Assembly (NCBI GenBank): GCA_963771075.1
Contig: CAVYSE010000003.1
Coordinates: 64,001 to 128,000, forward strand
DNA from: a candidate division FCPU426 bacterium
GTDB taxonomy: Bacteria; Oederibacteriota; Muellerivitia; Muellerivitales; Muellerivitaceae
Length of the DNA stretch: 64,000 nt
Direction of reading: 5' to 3'
The translations under genes were made by a program, and so were the position numbers. The notes under the pieces were generated by a model that made no database searches, was not told where the DNA came from, and worked only from the letters and a program-made list of their open reading frames with translations. Of the stretch, positions 34,489 through 42,506 are shown in pieces (position 1 is the stretch's first letter; the number at the start of each line of letters is the position of its first letter).

Positions 34489-34949
34489 GGGGTCATTGTA
34501 ATGGGGGGAGCGAGCAATCAAAAGGGGGAAAGACTTGAAAACCTTCCGAGTCATGCGTTTTTCGGTAGTGTCTCAGTTTAAACGGGCTATTAATTTAAGT
34601 CGTAACTGTTCAGCGTAGCTTAAAAAAACATCCAACACATGCCGACCTTCCATGAAACCCTTTTATGAGGTCGGTATAGTCCTGGTTTCATTTGCTCCCA
34701 GGGAGCAAATGAGGACAAAGATACGAAGACACCCCATATGATTCACCGTGAATCATATGGGGTAGTACCGCCATCATTAAACCAATCAAATGGAGGGGCG
34801 GCACACAAAGGACAGCAAAAGAAGAATAAATACCTAAAAAATCTAAAACCAGGGCCTTATTTGCCTTTCTTCGTGGCTTAGTGGCTTCGTGTTGGCTGTG
34901 GGTTTGTCGGGCCTGAACTATTACGAATTGTCTATATCGGGGTTTGAAC

Positions 34950-35438
34950 CTAAAAAGCCTTGTTTTTGCATAGGAGAATGGCGTCGGGTGCTGGCCAAGC
35001 GGTCGAGACGGGTTCTTCAATGTTTACGGTGAATTCCTTAACACTGACGGTGGATGAAGGGGGGGCGATTTTTTCCACCTGGCCGACCAGGTGAAATTGC
35101 CTATGGACTACCCAGTCCCCCACCTCGATGACGTCTTGCCCCTTTTCGGGCTCACGCTGAAAAAGGGAAAGGATCGTTTTTTTCAACCGGTCCTGGCGTG
35201 ATTCCAGGTAGGCAAGGGCCCGCCCCTTGACGAAGGCCACTTCAAGGGGTGTTAGGTTCCGTTTAAAAGATAGTTCGATTTCCTTGAAGCACTTGATGAT
35301 AGCTGCCGTCCGTAAGGCTTTGGGGTCATCGGCGCTGATTCGGGACCCAGCCAAAAGCGTTTGCGGCCATTGGTATTCGGGTTTCTGAAAGGCTTGCCTC
35401 AGGTTTTTAAGGATATTGCCCGCGCAGCGTTCATCCAT
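34950..35438 (-). CDS. Hypothetical protein with possible C-terminal SH3/KOW-like domain
   Basis: 162 aa ORF; IEVGDWVVH..F..VGQVEKI. Confidence 0.55.
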   Translation of the reverse strand: MDERCAGNILKNLRQAFQKPEYQWPQTLLAGSRISADDPKALRTAAIIKCFKEIELSFKRNLTPLEVAFVKGRALAYLESRQDRLKKTILSLFQREPEKGQDVIEVGDWVVHRQFHLVGQVEKIAPPSSTVSVKEFTVNIEEPVSTAWPAPDAILLCKNKAF

Positions 35439-35885
35439 TTACGGGTTACTTTCTACCCTTCAATTGGCCATCGAGAAGAAGGGTTTTGAGAGGTAACTTA
35501 AATATAAGATTATTGTAATGGCGGGCTTCTGTAATCAAAAGCGGGAAAGGTTTCATTATTTTTGGCTTTCTAAAACTTCAACCCTTTTCCGACTTCCCCT
35601 TCGGGAAAACCGGGCCACCCTGGTTTTTTCTTCCAGTCGTTACGCCGTCATCTCACCGCCGGTTTCCTCTGGAACTTCCGCCATATCTCGCCCATCTCGC
35701 CTTCCTGTTAGCGTAGGAAGAAGCGATTGGAATAGTTTCTATAAAATGAAGACTTGACCCCATTTTTCTCACCCATCCCGACCCACCCAAACAAAAAAAC
35801 CCCGTCCATCCGCGAGGATAAACAGGGTCGTTTTTGTTGAGAACAGGCTCTAATTTTAACGAAAACCAAGGTCGTAGGGTAAAAG

Positions 35886-35940
35886 TGGTGCCCGAGGTCG
35901 GACTTGAACCGACATGACCGTGAGGTCGATAGATTTTGAA
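35886..35940 (-). pseudogene. 3' portion of tRNA-Leu(CAA); 5' half absent
   Basis: Minus strand reads TTCAAAA TCTAT, long variable arm GACCTCACGGTC, T arm GTCGG TTCAAGT CCGAC, then CTCGGGC ACCA. No D arm or 5' acceptor strand upstream. Confidence 0.85.
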
Positions 35941-36045
35941 CATTGGGGTCAGGTCTTTATTTTATATTGTCTATCCGGACCTTGAACCTCGTCTCTCCCT
36001 CCATCCTCTTCTTTACCATCGCCATCCGGTTCCCCACTGCCGAAC
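35941..36045. repeat. Copy 1 of a ~100-bp direct repeat: GGGGTCAGGTC end plus a 3' coding remnant
   Basis: Near-identical to 36054-36064 joined to 37389-37482; minus strand reads SAVGNRMAMVKKRMEGETRFKVRIDNIK* then AGACCTGACCCC. Confidence 0.85.
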
Positions 36046-36064
36046 ACATTAAACATTGGGGTCA

Positions 36065-36230
36065 CCTATGAAAAAGAATGTCCAGGCAAAAGCGTAGTAT
36101 CACGGCCCCAAGTCCAACCTGAGTCTCAAAGGACTACAAGTCAGTCACCTATTCGCGGTTGTTTCACCGCACGATAACGTTGGACCCGGCCGCTCAATCA
36201 GGCCAAGGACCTCAACTCTTGCGGGTTGTG
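36065..36230 (-). ncRNA. Candidate bridge/seek RNA in the downstream non-coding end of the IS110
   Basis: Structured region (stem GGGTCCAAC/GTTGGACTT, hairpin GCGGT-GAAACA-ACCGC) with segments matching both IS ends. Confidence 0.6.
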
Positions 36231-37253
36231 TCAGACCCCGTCGGAGCTGGCCGGGCAGTCCTCAAAAGCTTCCTTCTTTCGTAACATATGAAAGATGCTT
36301 TTCAGCATAGCCCTTGCTACTGCTATTCGTCCCGCGTTATTCCCATGCTTCTTCTTCACCCTCGTGTATAAGGTCCCATACCGTCGGGTTTTGCGAATGG
36401 CATGAAGCGAGTTCTCAACCAATATCCAGCGAATCCATTTAGAACCCTGTTTGGTGATGTGGCCGTTGTGGCTTTTTCCCCCTGATGCGTGAACACTGGG
36501 GACCAATCCACCATAAGAACATAGATGTTCCGCGTCCGGGAACCGGCGAATATCCCCAATCTCGCTCAAAATTAATAAAGCCGAAAAGGCACCCACGCCT
36601 GGCATGGTCATCATCAGCTGGGCTTCCGGGCTTTCTGCTGCCATTTTCTTGATCACCTCTTCTGATTTGGCGATCTCTTGGCCTAGTTCCCGGATTACTT
36701 CCATATATCCGTCCAGTTCCAAACGGTAGCAAGGCCGGGTACCTACCGTGGCAAGTTCGCGGAAGTTCTTTATTCCGAATCGGTTTTTAGTAACGGGTTC
36801 GATTCCCGCCTTGGTCATGACCGAAGTCATCCGGTTTTTGGCTTGTGTTCTCAATTGCACCAGGGAAGCCCGGTACCTAAGGATTTCCCGTAAGTCGCGG
36901 ATCTCTCGGGGTGGCACATAGGCTCGTGGCAGCAGATCCACCCGCAAAAGTTGAGCCAGGATTCCCGAATCAATTTTATCCGTCTTGATCTTGGCCGAGG
37001 CTATGGCTTTGACCTTTTGGGGGTGGGCCAATACCAGGTTGGGGAATCGATCCTCGATGAGTTCGTAAAAGTGATACCAATGACCTGTGGCTTCTACTAC
37101 GACCTGGCTACTCACGGGTTGCTTCTTGAAATAAGCCTTTAAAGTATCCGCGTCGTTCTTCAGATCGACTTGTTCCAGCACCTTTCCTTTCTCATTCACT
37201 CTCGTGACGTAGGATGTTTTCTGGTGTAGGTCTACTCCGATATACTGTCCCAC
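36231..37253 (-). CDS. IS110 family transposase/recombinase (DEDD RuvC + Tnp20)
   Basis: IGVDLH, VVEATG, KTDKIDS, PGVG, GLVPSVHASG, ITKQGSKWIRW, AVAR. Confidence 0.96.
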   Translation of the reverse strand: MGQYIGVDLHQKTSYVTRVNEKGKVLEQVDLKNDADTLKAYFKKQPVSSQVVVEATGHWYHFYELIEDRFPNLVLAHPQKVKAIASAKIKTDKIDSGILAQLLRVDLLPRAYVPPREIRDLREILRYRASLVQLRTQAKNRMTSVMTKAGIEPVTKNRFGIKNFRELATVGTRPCYRLELDGYMEVIRELGQEIAKSEEVIKKMAAESPEAQLMMTMPGVGAFSALLILSEIGDIRRFPDAEHLCSYGGLVPSVHASGGKSHNGHITKQGSKWIRWILVENSLHAIRKTRRYGTLYTRVKKKHGNNAGRIAVARAMLKSIFHMLRKKEAFEDCPASSDGV

Positions 37254-37699
37254 GGCTGCACCTCCTAAGCGTTTTGCACCACCTGCAAAGGTGAGTGCCT
37301 TTTCGACTCTGGGTTTATCCTAGAGCCTCGTCCCACTTAAGTGGAGACGCTCTACGCTTGGAGCTCTGCAGCCTTTTTCATGTTATCAGGTCTTTATTTT
37401 ATATTATCTATCCGGGCCTTGAACCGCGTCTCTCCCTCCATCCGCTTCTTTACCATCGCTATCCGGTTCCCCACTGCCGAACAAAAAAAGGCCACCATTA
37501 TCCACTTTAGACCCTTCCGCCCTCCACCGCATTATCGCACCCGATAGGCCGCCTTCGGTTCCTCAATAAACCCGATCTTCCGAGCAGGTTTATTCGGTTC
37601 TTCATACCGCTTCTAATTGAAAGCTAATTGGAATGCGGCATCGTCCCCCCTTTTGACCTTTCGGGCAAAAGGGGACATTGGGTCCCCGTCGTGGAAAAC

Positions 37700-38107
37700 C
37701 TATTTTCTGATAACAAAGTTTTCCATTGAAACAGTCAGACCCGGGGTGGCACGGCGTAGGGCGCGATCCTCGGTCACGCAAGGCACCCCAAGCTGCTGGG
37801 CCAACAAGACATATTGGGCGTCGTAGGCTGATATTTTGTAATGAAGGGCGATTTCTAAGGTTTCAATGGGCCCCAATTCAACTTCGTTTGGAAGGAAATG
37901 GGCATAAACATCTTCTAATGCCTTGGCCGCTTTTTCTTTGGTTAATCCGCCCTGCCGGACATAGGTGGTGAATATGTTGAGAATTTCATGGCGCCAAAGA
38001 CTCGGAAGTCGCCAATACGGATCCCGATCACGCACTTGGAGGGCTAAAGGCGTCAGCGACCCTTCGATAATGGAATAAGCTAAGACATTCGCATCCACGA
38101 CAATCAA
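37700..38107 (-). CDS. vapC: VapC PIN-domain toxin
   Basis: IVVDANVL, WRHEILN, ISAYDAQYVLLA, VTEDRAL; TTG start overlaps the antitoxin stop. Confidence 0.9.
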   Translation of the reverse strand: MIVVDANVLAYSIIEGSLTPLALQVRDRDPYWRLPSLWRHEILNIFTTYVRQGGLTKEKAAKALEDVYAHFLPNEVELGPIETLEIALHYKISAYDAQYVLLAQQLGVPCVTEDRALRRATPGLTVSMENFVIRK

Positions 38108-38322
38108 GCGCGGCCCTCTTGGATGGTCTTTTTCAACCATGCGGGAGTGATGGGAAATTTCCCCTTGATGGGTTCGGGCCAAGGACGCTCGGAATGCCCG
38201 GACAAAGCTTCCTCCAGGAGAGCCAACGCTTCTTTGGTCATAGACCTTCGATGTTGGGTCGCGAATTCCTTGAGTTTCTTATGCACTGGGCCCGGAACGT
38301 TTTTGATCAAAATATCAGGCAT
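38104..38322 (-). CDS. FitA/VapB-like ribbon-helix-helix antitoxin
   Basis: ILIKNVP..VHKKLKE.A..HRRSM..EAL.LL; directly upstream of the PIN toxin. Confidence 0.88.
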   Translation of the reverse strand: MPDILIKNVPGPVHKKLKEFATQHRRSMTKEALALLEEALSGHSERPWPEPIKGKFPITPAWLKKTIQEGRA

Positions 38323-38563
38323 ATCCGCCTCCTATCCAAACGATATCATAACAATATCATTACAATAGTTAAGTTTCAAGGCTCTTCCATAACTCGGGTT
38401 GTCTGCTAGGCCTCCCCGTCGTGGACAAAGAAACTTTAGAAAAGGTCCTACTCGGGAATCCAAATGCAATGGTTTATTGGGCTTATATTCATATTATTTT
38501 ATCCACGGGACCCCAGACCCGGTTCGATTTCAAGTTGAGTCGTAAATTACAACAGAGGTTCCC

Positions 38564-39400
38564 TCACGGCACGTCCAAAGCCAGCTTTTCCCTTTTCGGG
38601 TTGAAGCCATCGGACGATTGGGGGTCCTCCAAGCGGTGAGCGTCGTCCCACTCCTTCGGGTTCACGACATAAAGGCTGTGCTTGCCCGGCGCGAGGCCCT
38701 GCAGGGCCGCTTCCAGGTTTTCCCGGTGGGGCTGCTGGTCGGTATCCATATCCACGTTCCAAACCCTGTCCCCGAATAGGAAGCCCGACTTTTCCATGGG
38801 AGAGTTGTCCCACATCATCACGGCCTCGCCGCCGCCATCCAGCAAAACACCCTGGTTCGGGTAAGGCATACCGCGAACAGGCACCGCTTTGCCGTTTTGC
38901 GAGGTCTTGATAAAAAATTCCATGGCCGAAACCAGGTGCTCCATGGCCTCCGCGTTGGCGCAGAACATCGTGAAGGGCTTTTTCAGGCTGGACGCCACCA
39001 CGCCGCAATAGTAGGAAGTCCCCGGGTGGTCCGACACCGTTTCGATTTTGGAGCAATGGATGGCCCGGACGTCTTCCCAAAAGAACGCGGTTTTCGCCGG
39101 GCTGGCGCCCACCCCCAGGAAATTGCCCGCCAGGTTTCCCAGCGCGTCCCCCGGCAGGTTCAGGGTGAGCCCCGTGGCGCCCACTTGGACCGACTGGATC
39201 TGTTTCTTGTCGTGCCCCTGCACGAGGATGTATTTGTCCGGGTCCGCCAGGTCTTGCAGGCGTCCCGTGGCCATGCCCTCGCCCATTGCGCTATCGGCCG
39301 TGATTGGGCAATCCAGGACCCGGCATGACGGGGGGAGAACGGCTATTTCAGCTTCGAGGTAACTCTTATCTTCGTCGCTCTCTTTCCAAGCGCAGGCGGA
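38564..39400 (-). CDS. Hypothetical protein with C-terminal PDZ-like motif; true start uncertain, possibly 5'-truncated
   Basis: GC-rich coding-like 3' part; DNSPMEKSGFLFGDRVWNVD resembles the PDZ SPA..G...GD.I..V motif. Confidence 0.5.
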   Translation of the reverse strand, partial: SACAWKESDEDKSYLEAEIAVLPPSCRVLDCPITADSAMGEGMATGRLQDLADPDKYILVQGHDKKQIQSVQVGATGLTLNLPGDALGNLAGNFLGVGASPAKTAFFWEDVRAIHCSKIETVSDHPGTSYYCGVVASSLKKPFTMFCANAEAMEHLVSAMEFFIKTSQNGKAVPVRGMPYPNQGVLLDGGGEAVMMWDNSPMEKSGFLFGDRVWNVDMDTDQQPHRENLEAALQGLAPGKHSLYVVNPKEWDDAHRLEDPQSSDGFNPKREKLALDVP

Positions 39401-39829
39401 AATATAGGTAAGATTAGTCGACAGTCGACGGTCTGCAGCCAGAGCACCAATTCCCTTTTCCGGAATTGGCGCGCTCAAACCTTGTTCCCCGGTTTGAGAC
39501 CTCGGAACAGAGGACAGGGAAGCTTTGGGTTTAGCCGGCAGTCGACGGTCCGCAGTCTGCCCTGAGCCCCGTCGAAGGGTTGGCAGGGGCGCCTTTGGCG
39601 ATGATTGAACCTGAGAAGTCGTGTCGTTCTTTGTGTCTTCGTGTCTTTGTGTTGGATTTGAAGTTCCCGGGGTTGGAATTGTCGTGGGTAGTGGTTGAGG
39701 AAAAGCCTTACTATCGCCTTCCCAAGGGTTTACCCAAGACCCTACCCAATGGATTGCCCCGGAGGCGGTCCGGCTCAACAAGCCCCTTAGCCCTGCCGGG
39801 TGGAAGAAGAATAGTCGACCAGCTATAAA

Positions 39830-40851
39830 GGGGTCAGTCATCAATTATTAATATTTACAAGTTGGAGGCAATCGGTTAGCTTGTCGGGGCTATGAGAAAA
39901 CCTAGACTTCTTTATCTCGGCGGCTTGTACCACGTGATTGCCAGGGGAAATCAAAGGCAAAAAACATTTTTGGCCAAGGTTGATTTTCTTAAATATCTGG
40001 AACTATTAGGCGAGCATTTGGAAACGCGTGAAATAAGGCTTTATGCCTATTGCCTGATGCCCAACCATGTTCATCTGTTGGTAGAACAAGCCGGTGATTA
40101 TCCCTTGTCCCGGTATATGCATCGGCTCCAAACGGCTTATACCCAATTCTTCAACCGGACCCATAAGAAAGTAGGCCATCTTTTTCAGGGTCGGTATAAG
40201 GCCATATTGGTGGACAAGGATTCATATCTGTTGGAATTGGTTCGATACATTGGGTTGAATCCGTTCAGGGCGAAATTGGAGGAAAAGCCGGGAATATATC
40301 CCTGGACCAGCCACCAACAATATTTGGGCCGAGAGAATAAGCCATTGGCGAAAGTGGAAGTTGAACCAGTTTTGGCTCTTTTCAGCAAAATGAAGAAAGA
40401 AGCCCAAAAGGCCTATTTGAGGTTCGTCAAGGAAGGCATGGGGGAAGGCCATCGGGAGGATTTGTATGATGTCCGGCAGGGACATATTTTGGGGGACCAG
40501 GAATTCGAACAAAAAGCGCATCAAAAGGCCCAACGTCCGCTGTCAGGTGCGAGTTTGAAGGTGAAGAAAACATTACCTGAAATATGGAAAGTACTTTTGA
40601 AACGGGAAGGGCATAGTGAAGATCCGACAGGCCATCGCCGAAGCCGTTTAATGGAAGAAGCGGCCTATCTAGCGTTTGAGGGTTGTGGGATAAGCCAAAG
40701 AGAGATAGGGGTATATTTTGGGAAAAATCAAAGCGCAGTCAGCCAGGCCATTAGGCGTTTGGAGATGAAGTGGAAAGAACAGCCCGGGGAAAAGGAGAAG
40801 TGGTTTCGATGGGCGCGACACTTAGAATATTAATAAATGATGACTGACCCC
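39830..40851 (+). mobile_element. 1022-bp element with a Y1/HUH transposase and 26-bp terminal inverted repeats
   Basis: GGGGTCAGTCATCAATTATTAATATT (39830-39855) and AATATTAATAAATGATGACTGACCCC (40826-40851), 25/26 match; no TSD visible. Confidence 0.85.
39892..40833 (+). CDS. Y1 (IS200/RAYT-like) HUH transposase with C-terminal HTH
   Basis: YHVIARGN, AYCLMPNHVHLL (HUH), GHLFQGRY, RYIGLNP, YPWTS, C-terminal SQREIG.YFG..QSAVSQ. Confidence 0.93.
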   Translation: MRKPRLLYLGGLYHVIARGNQRQKTFLAKVDFLKYLELLGEHLETREIRLYAYCLMPNHVHLLVEQAGDYPLSRYMHRLQTAYTQFFNRTHKKVGHLFQGRYKAILVDKDSYLLELVRYIGLNPFRAKLEEKPGIYPWTSHQQYLGRENKPLAKVEVEPVLALFSKMKKEAQKAYLRFVKEGMGEGHREDLYDVRQGHILGDQEFEQKAHQKAQRPLSGASLKVKKTLPEIWKVLLKREGHSEDPTGHRRSRLMEEAAYLAFEGCGISQREIGVYFGKNQSAVSQAIRRLEMKWKEQPGEKEKWFRWARHLEY

Positions 40852-41233
40852 GTTCACCAAGACTTTTAGGAAATTATTTTGATCCGCGTGTTAATTTAGC
40901 AAACGACCTAGCCGGAGGGTTATCTTTTTTCAGAGTTTAGATGATGAGCTTTTGGGATTGCCAGGTTTTTTAAGTGCTGTTGTCAAAGTTGTAGCAGGAG
41001 TTATATGAATCAATTAGAAAATCTCTTCAAATTTTACAGCCAGGTGAAAAAAACTAAATCATTTGTATTTAGTGCGGCCCTATTGGGTGGTGTAGTCGTA
41101 ATATTCAACTATTGTTTTTATCACTACTATTTGAGGTTTCGAATTCCTTTTATAACAGATTTGGATTCATTTGAATTTGATTTCTTGGGATATTTTTTAA
41201 ATATTACTACTTGTATGATTTTTTATATATTCT

Positions 41234-42506
41234 CATGTGTGTCTAAATTAGCCCGAACAAGAAAGGCCTAACCAACCCGGAGAAATATAATAAGTGGGTG
41301 CGAAACCCTTATTATTCCAGGAGGTCCGGCCTTGGCTCATTCTTCCACAATCCTTTCCCAGATGCTCAAGTTTTTTTCGAGACATGAATTTCAAAAGCTG
41401 GTTTTGAAGCACCAGGCCGAGTACCACGCAAGAGGCGTTACATCCTGGTCCCACTTTGTGGCTATGCTCTACGGCCAACTGGCCGGACAAGATGCGCTCC
41501 GGGGCATTGAAGCCGGGCTCGCCACACAAGGGAACAACCTCTATCACATGGGTGCCCAACCCGTCTCCCGACCCACCCTGTCCTACGCCAACGCCCATCG
41601 TCCCGCCAGCCTTTTTGAGGACTTGTTCTCCCTCATGCTGTCCAAATGTCAGACGGTGGCACCCCATCACAAGTTCAGGTTCAAGAATCCCCTCTATTCC
41701 CTGGACGCCTCCACCATCAGCCTTTGCTTGTCACTATTCGATTGGGCCATGTTCCGTAAAACCAAAGGAGCCGTCAAACTTCACGTGAAGTTCAACCACT
41801 CCGGCTACCTGCCCACCTTCCTACGTGTAACCACCGGCAAGCTGCATGAAAAGAAAATCCTTCCGCTGGTTCCCTTGGAAAAAGGCGATGTCCTAGTCAT
41901 GGATCGGGGTTACCTTGATTTCACCCTTCTCCAAAACCTCACAAAACAAGGCGTTTTCTTCGTCACTCGTCTCAAATCCAACTCGGCTTTCCGGGTGGTT
42001 GAACGCCATGAAAAAAAACACCCCAACATCCTGGCGGATCAAACCATCCGAATGATCGGCTTCAACACCCGCCGAAAATACCCTTACCCCCTGCGACGTG
42101 TAGTGGCGCGTGATCCCAAAACAAAAAAACGAGTCGTCTTAGTTACCAATCAGTTCCAATGGGCCGCTTCCACCATCGCCGCCGTCTACAAAGACCGTTG
42201 GCAGATCGAACTCTTTTTCAAAACCCTCAAGCAACAGCTCAAGGTTAAAAGCTTCGTGGGAACCTCCTTGAACGCCCTGCTGTCTCAATTGTGGACTGCC
42301 ATGATTGCTTACTTGATGCTCAGCTACATGAAATTCAAATCGAAATTCGCTTGGTCGCTTTATACCTTGAGCAGTATTCTGCCCACGAACCTTTTCAGCC
42401 GTAGAAACCTGTGGGATTGGCTAAACCAGCCTTTCAAAGCTACGTCGGAAGTCTTTCTGCTTACAAAACAAGCTGGTTTTGATTTCGGCTAATTCAGACA
42501 GCTATG
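41234..42506 (+). mobile_element. IS4 family insertion sequence
   Basis: TIRs CATGTGTGTCTAAATTAGC / GCTAATTCAGACAGCTATG; 9-bp TSD ATATATTCT at 41225-41233 and 42507-42515. Confidence 0.95.
41332..42492 (+). CDS. IS4 family DDE transposase (DUF4372 N-terminus)
   Basis: LDASTI, KGAVKLH, MDRGY, YKDRWQIELFFK.LKQ (YREK). Confidence 0.96.
   Translation: MAHSSTILSQMLKFFSRHEFQKLVLKHQAEYHARGVTSWSHFVAMLYGQLAGQDALRGIEAGLATQGNNLYHMGAQPVSRPTLSYANAHRPASLFEDLFSLMLSKCQTVAPHHKFRFKNPLYSLDASTISLCLSLFDWAMFRKTKGAVKLHVKFNHSGYLPTFLRVTTGKLHEKKILPLVPLEKGDVLVMDRGYLDFTLLQNLTKQGVFFVTRLKSNSAFRVVERHEKKHPNILADQTIRMIGFNTRRKYPYPLRRVVARDPKTKKRVVLVTNQFQWAASTIAAVYKDRWQIELFFKTLKQQLKVKSFVGTSLNALLSQLWTAMIAYLMLSYMKFKSKFAWSLYTLSSILPTNLFSRRNLWDWLNQPFKATSEVFLLTKQAGFDFG

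Follow-up and report, generated by a model that had tools for sequence, protein, structure and literature searches.

Our analysis of the window, by which we mean the whole 64,000-nucleotide stretch of DNA under study, points to an insertion sequence that is very probably steered by a guide RNA of its own into the end repeats of a little-studied mobile family, the TIRtrons. We consider it highly likely that this IS1111-family element is moved by bridge/seek-RNA-guided recombination and that it belongs to a clade landing on TIRtron repeats and on scattered intergenic remnants. The support is sequence-based and comes from the element's ends, its enzyme, its copies and their sites, a conserved RNA fold, and covariation between guides and DNA. 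An RNA-guided mechanism for IS110/IS1111 elements has been known since 2024, and IS1111 members lying in the repeats of other elements were already known.

An IS1111-type element in the window

The element and the repeats around it are laid out as follows.

35945..36044, plus strand: intact tandem copy of the same TIRtron end, an empty target (aligns with the end of the intact TIRtron at 94.4% over 107 nt)
36058..36064, plus strand: GGGGTCA, the outer segment of the TIRtron terminal inverted repeat that the IS interrupts
36065..37388, minus strand: IS1111-type insertion sequence, 1324 bp (ends from flanks and homologues)
36068..36076, plus strand: right subterminal inverted repeat ATGAAAAAG, 3 nt from the right end
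36079..36084, minus strand: -35 hexamer TGGACA of a predicted circle-junction promoter
36231..37253, minus strand: DEDD recombinase gene, 340 aa (PF01548 and PF02371)
37373..37381, minus strand: left subterminal inverted repeat ATGAAAAAG, 7 nt from the left end
37380..37385, minus strand: -10 hexamer TAACAT of the predicted circle-junction promoter
37389..37481, plus strand: what is left of the split repeat, together with about 90 bp of truncated TIRtron end (95.8% over 96 nt to the end of C3:235052-236051)

The first-pass annotation, made from the letters alone, had called this an IS110/IS1111 element, and the domains, a score of 237.9 bits against NCBIfam NF033542 (cut-off 140) and the subterminal repeats agree with that call; the coordinates given for its motifs were all correct. 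The recombinase combines a DEDD RuvC domain with a PF02371 domain bearing the SG motif, its 340 residues fall within the 330-350 of IS1111 enzymes, and D8, E54, D92, D95 and S257 are invariant across 40 aligned homologue sequences; its similarity to the IS621 chain is only distant (E 1.8e-9). According to the available text of PMC11187229, the IS1111 signature is a pair of subterminal repeats at distances of 7 nt and 3 nt from the left and right ends, respectively. Here that 7/3-nt spacing is exact, and the repeats themselves are 9 bp perfect (10/12), below the usual 11-13. As expected of an IS1111 element, there is more noncoding DNA downstream of the gene (166 nt) than upstream (135 nt).

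Once joined, the element's ends read TGGACA-17-TAACAT, which is promoter-like and plausibly a junction promoter; a promoter scan of the linear locus gave 0 sites. An Rfam search of 34500-41500 returned no family, only one chance 15-nt tmRNA fragment, and a homologue scan with one protein alone returned nothing from genome contigs and likewise nothing from viral contigs. Near the IS we also saw a PIN-domain/RHH toxin-antitoxin-like pair (37700-38322, minus strand) and a DDE transposase (PF01609, DUF4372; 41332-42492).

The interrupted repeat and its family

Removal of the IS restores CATTGGGGTCAGGTCTTTATTT, the same as the uninterrupted copy at 35941, as had been proposed. The further proposal, that the target was the end of another mobile element family, was borne out: the repeat GGGGTCAGGTCTTCATTTTATA is the terminal inverted repeat (TIR) of an element of 1.0 kb that encodes a Y1 (HUH) transposase. 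An intact example lies at C3:235052-236051, and the genome also has 98-99% identical copies and 430-bp miniature derivatives. GGGGTCAG stands at both ends of this element and of others, in agreement with the consensus GGGGWSAS, and a Y1 transposase gene lies between the repeats in this family (C3, C26, C28) and at the C19 site; in the one window Y1 protein scanned, only a Y1_Tnp domain was found. The accessible portions of PMC3733652 and PMC6006769 describe TIRtrons (TIRYT; TnpA-Y1 subclass 2.1) as a Y1 gene between TIRs with GGGGWSAS, and our target family fits both the TIRtrons of the former and subclass 2.1 of the latter. Set against the elements in those portions, several of this genome's TIRtrons are near-identical multi-copy elements.

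The window holds two tandem truncated TIRtron ends of about 100 bp each, of which the second is split by the IS and survives as a truncated end only. We rejected the tandem empty copy as an IS target-site duplication, the two being 94.9% identical over 98 nt. A second TIRtron family occupies 39830-40851 of the window (repeats GGGGTCAGTCATCA, Y1 gene 39892-40833, 4 copies at 98.6-100%) and is a HUH element, bounded by terminal inverted repeats, that has been mobile recently; how such elements move is, to our knowledge, poorly understood. A third TIR end, GGGGTCAAGTC, at 35751-35761 (minus strand), stands back to back with the 35945 copy and matches 60 bp of a 430-bp miniature element. Some TIRtron ends break at one shared point about 100 bp in and then run into other repeat-like sequence (window 36044-36057 and 37481-37500; C28:307793; C7:204483), which suggests a nested-insertion hot spot, and short tandem duplications with GGGGTCA often lie just outside TIRtron ends (C26:74970-74987, C19:80272-80305, C6:2779-2792). 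At 35884-35939 of the window (minus strand) we found a tRNA-Leu(CAA) remnant, a 3' half with 85% identity to the C24 gene of this genome. The TIRtron end cuts this half at its anticodon loop, and a terminator-like hairpin follows it at 35798-35829. No 5' half matching it was found, ARAGORN reported no tRNA on the window, and the half is possibly an old att remnant.

Copies and insertion sites in the genome

The genome carries seven full copies of the IS, 100% identical over 1328 nt, plus fragments. All seven occupy GG[GA]GTCAGG in the same orientation with zero added bases, a specific target used in a single orientation being an IS1111 trait. Their empty sites are GGGGTCAGGTC in three cases, GGGGTCAGGCC in two, and GGGGTCAGGCT and GGAGTCAGGCC in one each. 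The context is clearly that of a TIRtron terminal inverted repeat for five copies (C3, C28, C26, C19 and C11): the C26 copy splits the end of an intact TIRtron, the C19 copy splits one of two 30-bp identical repeats flanking another Y1 gene, and 23 nt of the C11 site match a third Y1-flanking repeat family at 91%. It is weaker at C18 (27 nt, 89%) and C21 (14 nt).

Free sites matching GG[GA]GTCAGG[CT][CT] numbered 45, of which 15 are TIR-type and 30 are not. Since 27 of those 30 lie inside stop-free frames of at least 200 aa, selection against gene disruption alone could yield the TIR bias. Free [AG]GGGTCAGGCCAA sites have a TIR-type continuation in 7 of 7 cases. Two further classes are also free, the repeat variant GGGGCCAGGCC[AT]A (15 exact sites) and GGGGTCAAGTC (10 sites), for example at C2:48328 and C27:43331; these two classes hold none of the seven full copies, and both deviate at positions read by the predicted guides. 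The left target guide matches two of the occupied sites 6/6, and GGTC sites require one G-T wobble.

Three other arrangements of IS sequence were seen. At C28:109624-109762 a duplication covers the right end's last 139 nt, and its joint falls exactly on the left-target-guide core within the RNA gene, which fits either an IS that inserted into its own guide sequence and then collapsed or an assembly artefact. Fragments comprise a diverged 58-nt right-end piece (C1:118275-118331) and a 37-nt end cut by a TIRtron (C6:2793-2829). At C18:281541-283123 two left IS parts lie in inverted arrangement, and this too may be an assembly artefact.

A predicted guide RNA in the right end

The predicted RNA and its parts are listed here in the order of the RNA.

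36112..36256, minus strand: predicted bridge/seek RNA (inferred ends; conserved structure, RNAalifold)
36244..36254, minus strand: stem closing the target loop, 5' strand, located within the ORF (partner strand 36186-36195; 99.5% paired, with compensatory changes at 5 of 10 pairs)
36234..36239, minus strand: GGGGUC, the right target guide, in transposase codons Gly339-Val340 (homologue covariation and its own 7 sites)
36208..36232, minus strand: hairpin capping the target loop (helix 2, 86% paired)
36197..36206, minus strand: left target guide UUGGCC-UG plus handshake-like AU matching the donor left end (covariation)
36186..36195, minus strand: 3' strand of the target-loop closing stem (structure covariation)
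36173..36178, minus strand: right donor guide GUUAUC (covariation)
36155..36170, minus strand: hairpin capping the donor loop (100% paired, 2 of 4 pairs compensatory)
36144..36152, minus strand: left donor guide AUAGG-UG plus handshake-like AC matching the target right flank (covariation)
36103..36111, minus strand: TTGGGGCCG, the earlier candidate guide, not conserved as a guide

The order is thus stem, right target guide, hairpin, left target guide, stem, right donor guide, hairpin and left donor guide, with the complement of the top strand 5' of the bottom-strand match, as in IS1111 elements. The guides of this element spell GGGGTCAGGCCAA, and it lacks the A of GGGGTCA at the right target guide. 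A guide RNA in the right end had been part of the first-pass reading, and the conserved fold and guide covariation support it. Of the motifs picked out there, ATAGGTGA at 36145-36152 extends to the 9-nt ATAGGTGAC (36144-36152), identical to the right junction at 36061-36069; GTTATC at 36173-36178 covaries with the element end, as a donor guide should; and GGCCTGA at 36198-36204, offered as the left target guide, extends to TTGGCCTGAT (36197-36206). Other details needed revision. The RNA region had been drawn as 36065-36230 and instead runs into the end of the ORF, to about 36256, and of 40 aligned sequences just three, the window element and its two closest relatives, show the proposed GGGTCCAAC/GTTGGACTT stem, the consensus closing the donor loop with GTC/GAC. 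When the 175-nt region was shuffled 200,000 times at the mononucleotide level, ATAGGTGA arose in 0.19%, GTTATC in 3.2%, both in 0.004%, and TTGGCCTGA in 0.09%.

A hand-drawn 23-pair structure had 96.1% of cells paired, with double changes at 12 of the 23 pairs (40 sequences, at least 50% identity), and scored above all 500 shuffles and all slid controls. The RNAalifold consensus recovered the same main helices plus an extra GTC/GAC stem closing the donor loop, leaving the guides unpaired. The four guides mostly pair with each other in the single-sequence ensemble and are open in the alignment consensus alone; such mutual pairing is possible for guides that read opposite strands of the same core. 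Folding 36095-36256 gave two domains (z only -1.8). The RNA stem and guide, when translated, give the transposase tail motif GQR-x-GVM, or SS-x-GV in the close clade (P0013-P0079), so the conserved protein tail would be constrained by the RNA. A peat metatranscriptome (one run, share 0.07) contained two contigs of a relative, over 36123-36273 and 37036-37390. Neither contig reveals ends or a level, and the one over the guide region (151 nt, depth 3, from a 98% relative) would not by itself reveal an RNA.

Guides covary with targets and element ends

We gathered 77 homologue loci at no less than 45% identity with enough downstream DNA, which reduced to 63 non-redundant loci and then to 48 with both ends and flanks (15 dropped). 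When these insertion sites were aligned and covariation was scored, as the first-pass annotation had proposed, the guides of the 48 homologues were seen to track their own targets and ends. The left target guide matched its own targets in 161 of 192 positions (shuffled 80.6, max 110), the left donor guide its own ends in 143 of 144 (shuffled 107, max 121) and the right donor guide its own ends in 133 of 192 (shuffled 85.5, max 104), with 0 of 5000 shuffles as high for these three guides; the shuffles ignore kinship among homologues, so all such covariation figures overstate independence. For the right target guide, counted by a fixed rule that left 43 of the 48 scorable (three rows dropped for want of an anchor and two for short flanks), there were 197 of 215 matches (shuffled mean 166, max 180). 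This guide is off consensus in 16 cells, and the target follows in all 16; guide/target pairs include GAGCCA with TGGCTC, GGGACA with TGTCCC, and GTGTCA with TGACAC. The earlier candidate TTGGGGCCG is indeed present at 36103-36111 but is not the right target guide: it aligns poorly, and its aligned position gave 70 of 180 matches (shuffled 64; 36 homologues).

The left end of the homologues is always TGAT, and their targets continue TG-AC, TG-GC, TG-TC or TG-AA. Because the element's TGA start is constant and the target's third base varies (TGG, TGT, TGC), the shared core is TG/CA rather than the TCA first suggested. The dinucleotide following the left donor guide matched the target in 92 of 96 positions (shuffled 75.6, max 85), compared with 39 of 96 for the element's own donor. 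That following the left target guide matched the donor in 90 of 96, but is nearly invariant, precluding a covariation test. The donor-loop dinucleotide changes three times on a quick tree of related homologues, and the target changes alongside in 3 of 3, the handshake signal resting on these three events; in four of the 48 homologues the target deviates from the donor-loop dinucleotide with the guide unchanged. The handshake guides of IS621 show the same partner-DNA pattern in the parts of PMC11208158 and PMC13626964 at hand, and we read the bases after the left guides as an IS621-type handshake in mirror image. A mirrored handshake would mean that the bottom strand is exchanged first.

The clade and TIRtron repeats

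Among the 48 homologues, 27 targets fit GGGG[AT][CG]A exactly and 42 fall within one mismatch. For comparison we assembled repeats from 33 Y1 loci in eight homologue-bearing genomes, of which 18 gave inverted pairs, filtered for GG..CA-like starts; for 30 of the 48 targets there is a Y1-flanking repeat that agrees at 13 or more of 16 positions (controls averaged 2.5, max 8). Positions 12-16 of the targets agree with the Y1 repeats in 107 of 150 cases (control 54), a zone that long left guides may partly read. An unfiltered search found pairs in 7 of 17 further Y1 loci, four of them of GGGTCAG/GTGTCAG type. A Y1 gene is adjacent at 2 of the 48 loci, many flanks being short, and a partner repeat at 4 of 36, and most homologue sites look to be solo repeats or remnants. 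For the target classes GGGGACATTCT and GGAGCCAGTCCCC we found no link to any Y1 repeat among the Y1 loci of homologue-bearing genomes; GGGGACATTCT occurs as close inverted pairs in G062.

Proposed mechanism and alternatives

Extrapolating from the work on IS621 and ISEc11, the element would leave as a circle whose joined ends create the TGGACA-17-TAACAT promoter. The transcript would be processed to a two-loop RNA, its target loop made up of GGGGUC, a hairpin and UUGGCC-UG and its donor loop of GUUAUC, a hairpin and AUAGG-UG, and a recombinase tetramer would exchange strands at the TG core via serine intermediates. The dinucleotides after the left guides would pair with partner DNA only after the first exchange, favouring insertion, and that exchange would take place on the bottom strand as the gene reads, with IS621 mirrored. 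The sequence spelled by the guides is the terminal repeat of one TIRtron family here, and G-T wobble would admit the window's GGGGTCAGGTC family; we would expect GGGGTCAGGCCAA and GGGGTCAGGTCTT to be usable targets, and GGGGCCAGGCC and GGGGTCAAGTC poor ones. TIRtron repeats and their scattered remnants would then serve the clade as recurring intergenic landing sites. The recombinase may sense an element end, or merely the 11-13 nt sequence that such ends carry.

The latter leads to a reading that we hold possible, while leaning against it, in which insertion is RNA-guided and the tie to TIRtrons is incidental or historical: the enzyme reads 11-13 nt, and the surviving insertions are mainly intergenic, many of these being TIRtron ends. 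It is compatible with the proposed mechanism and differs only on why the guide has its sequence. In its favour are the make-up of the 45 free sites, with 15 TIRs and 27 of the 30 others in long stop-free frames, and the 46 of 48 homologue loci that have no adjacent Y1 gene. The 13-mer spelled by the guides is, however, itself a TIR of this genome, and the guides of 45-62% identical elements keep GGGGTCA and variants that are also seen as Y1-flanking repeats. We think it rather improbable that a short target-loop RNA suffices and that the protein finds the ends through the subterminal repeats, leaving the donor-matching loop dispensable. An 82-nt seekRNA did support ISEc11 transposition, as far as the accessible text of PMC11187229 goes, but here covariation links the donor guides to the ends (143/144; 133/192) and the donor-loop dinucleotide to the target, and the donor hairpin has compensatory pairs.

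The layout implied by the first-pass annotation, in which TTGGGGCCG would be the right target guide and the target loop would enclose the donor loop, now seems very improbable. The flanks at C3 and C28 do match TTGGGG, TTGGGGTCG is present in one relative, and a 173-nt single-sequence fold nests the arms; against this, TTGGGGCCG is conserved in no more than 3 of 40 sequences (39% match, 36 homologues), and it is the upstream guide, in the transposase's last codons, that covaries, giving the order reported for IS1111 elements. Hardly credible at all is the view that targets are chosen by protein-DNA contact and that the RNA-like matches are relics of duplicated end sequence. Our guide RNA is predicted from sequence, with a sole RNA contig that is uninformative, but the guides change with their targets among 57-61% identical enzymes, and the stems carry compensatory changes.

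Relation to known systems and significance

Partridge and Hall reportedly described in 2003 two IS1111 members, IS4321 and IS5075, that insert into the terminal inverted repeats of the Tn21 family. Our element likewise hits the TIRs of another element, in this case those of HUH/Y1 TIRtrons rather than Tn21-family repeats. ISEc11, ISKpn4, ISPst6 and ISPa11, as described in the available text of PMC11187229, share with it the 7/3-nt extensions, a 330-350 aa DEDD enzyme, a downstream noncoding region, the top-strand complement 5' of the bottom-strand match, and targets in other elements' repeats (attC, REP). It differs from the IS1111 members in that text in having a TIRtron repeat as its target, in placing the first guide and one stem strand inside the transposase ORF, where their RNAs were mapped downstream of tnp, and in a donor loop that covaries, where their seekRNAs were described by target matches. 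The accessible parts of PMC11208160, PMC11208158 and PMC13626964 describe an IS621 bridge RNA with a target loop followed by a donor loop, four guides around a 2-nt core, and handshake dinucleotides after each loop's 3' guide that match partner DNA. Ours has the same plan, the guides of both loops covarying with target and donor; compared with IS621, the RNA lies in the right end, the core is TG, not CT, and left/right and strands are mirrored relative to the gene.

Insertion of IS110/IS1111 elements into TIRtron repeats goes unmentioned in the main text of PMC3733652 ('IS110', 0 matches) and in the available part of PMC6006769, and a literature search of mostly open papers, outside ISfinder, found no report of TIRtron repeats as an IS110/IS1111 target. 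Searching mostly open papers, as far as their text was available, for IS1111 with handshake or cryo-EM likewise found no report of IS1111 handshake bases. In the readable supplements of PMC11208160 the target motif gave only unrelated hits among the matches listed, and the clade may be in those data.

TIRtron repeats are thus a target class that we did not find reported for the IS1111 family, and the homologues provide natural, position-level evidence for donor guides and handshake bases, where the seekRNA and bridge models differ. The element has been active recently, all its guides are mapped, its core is TG and nature has reprogrammed its relatives, which suits it to assay, and it cautions that a guide can sit inside the transposase gene. 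More tentatively, and with real doubt, we suggest that a widespread IS1111 clade is a specialised TIRtron parasite, whose guides have tracked repeat variants across phyla, from which variants such as GGGGCCAGGCC escape via the handshake position, and that IS1111 elements, as the natural covariation would show, use a full donor loop with a mirror-image handshake. If true, this reading would reconcile the seekRNA and bridge RNA models.
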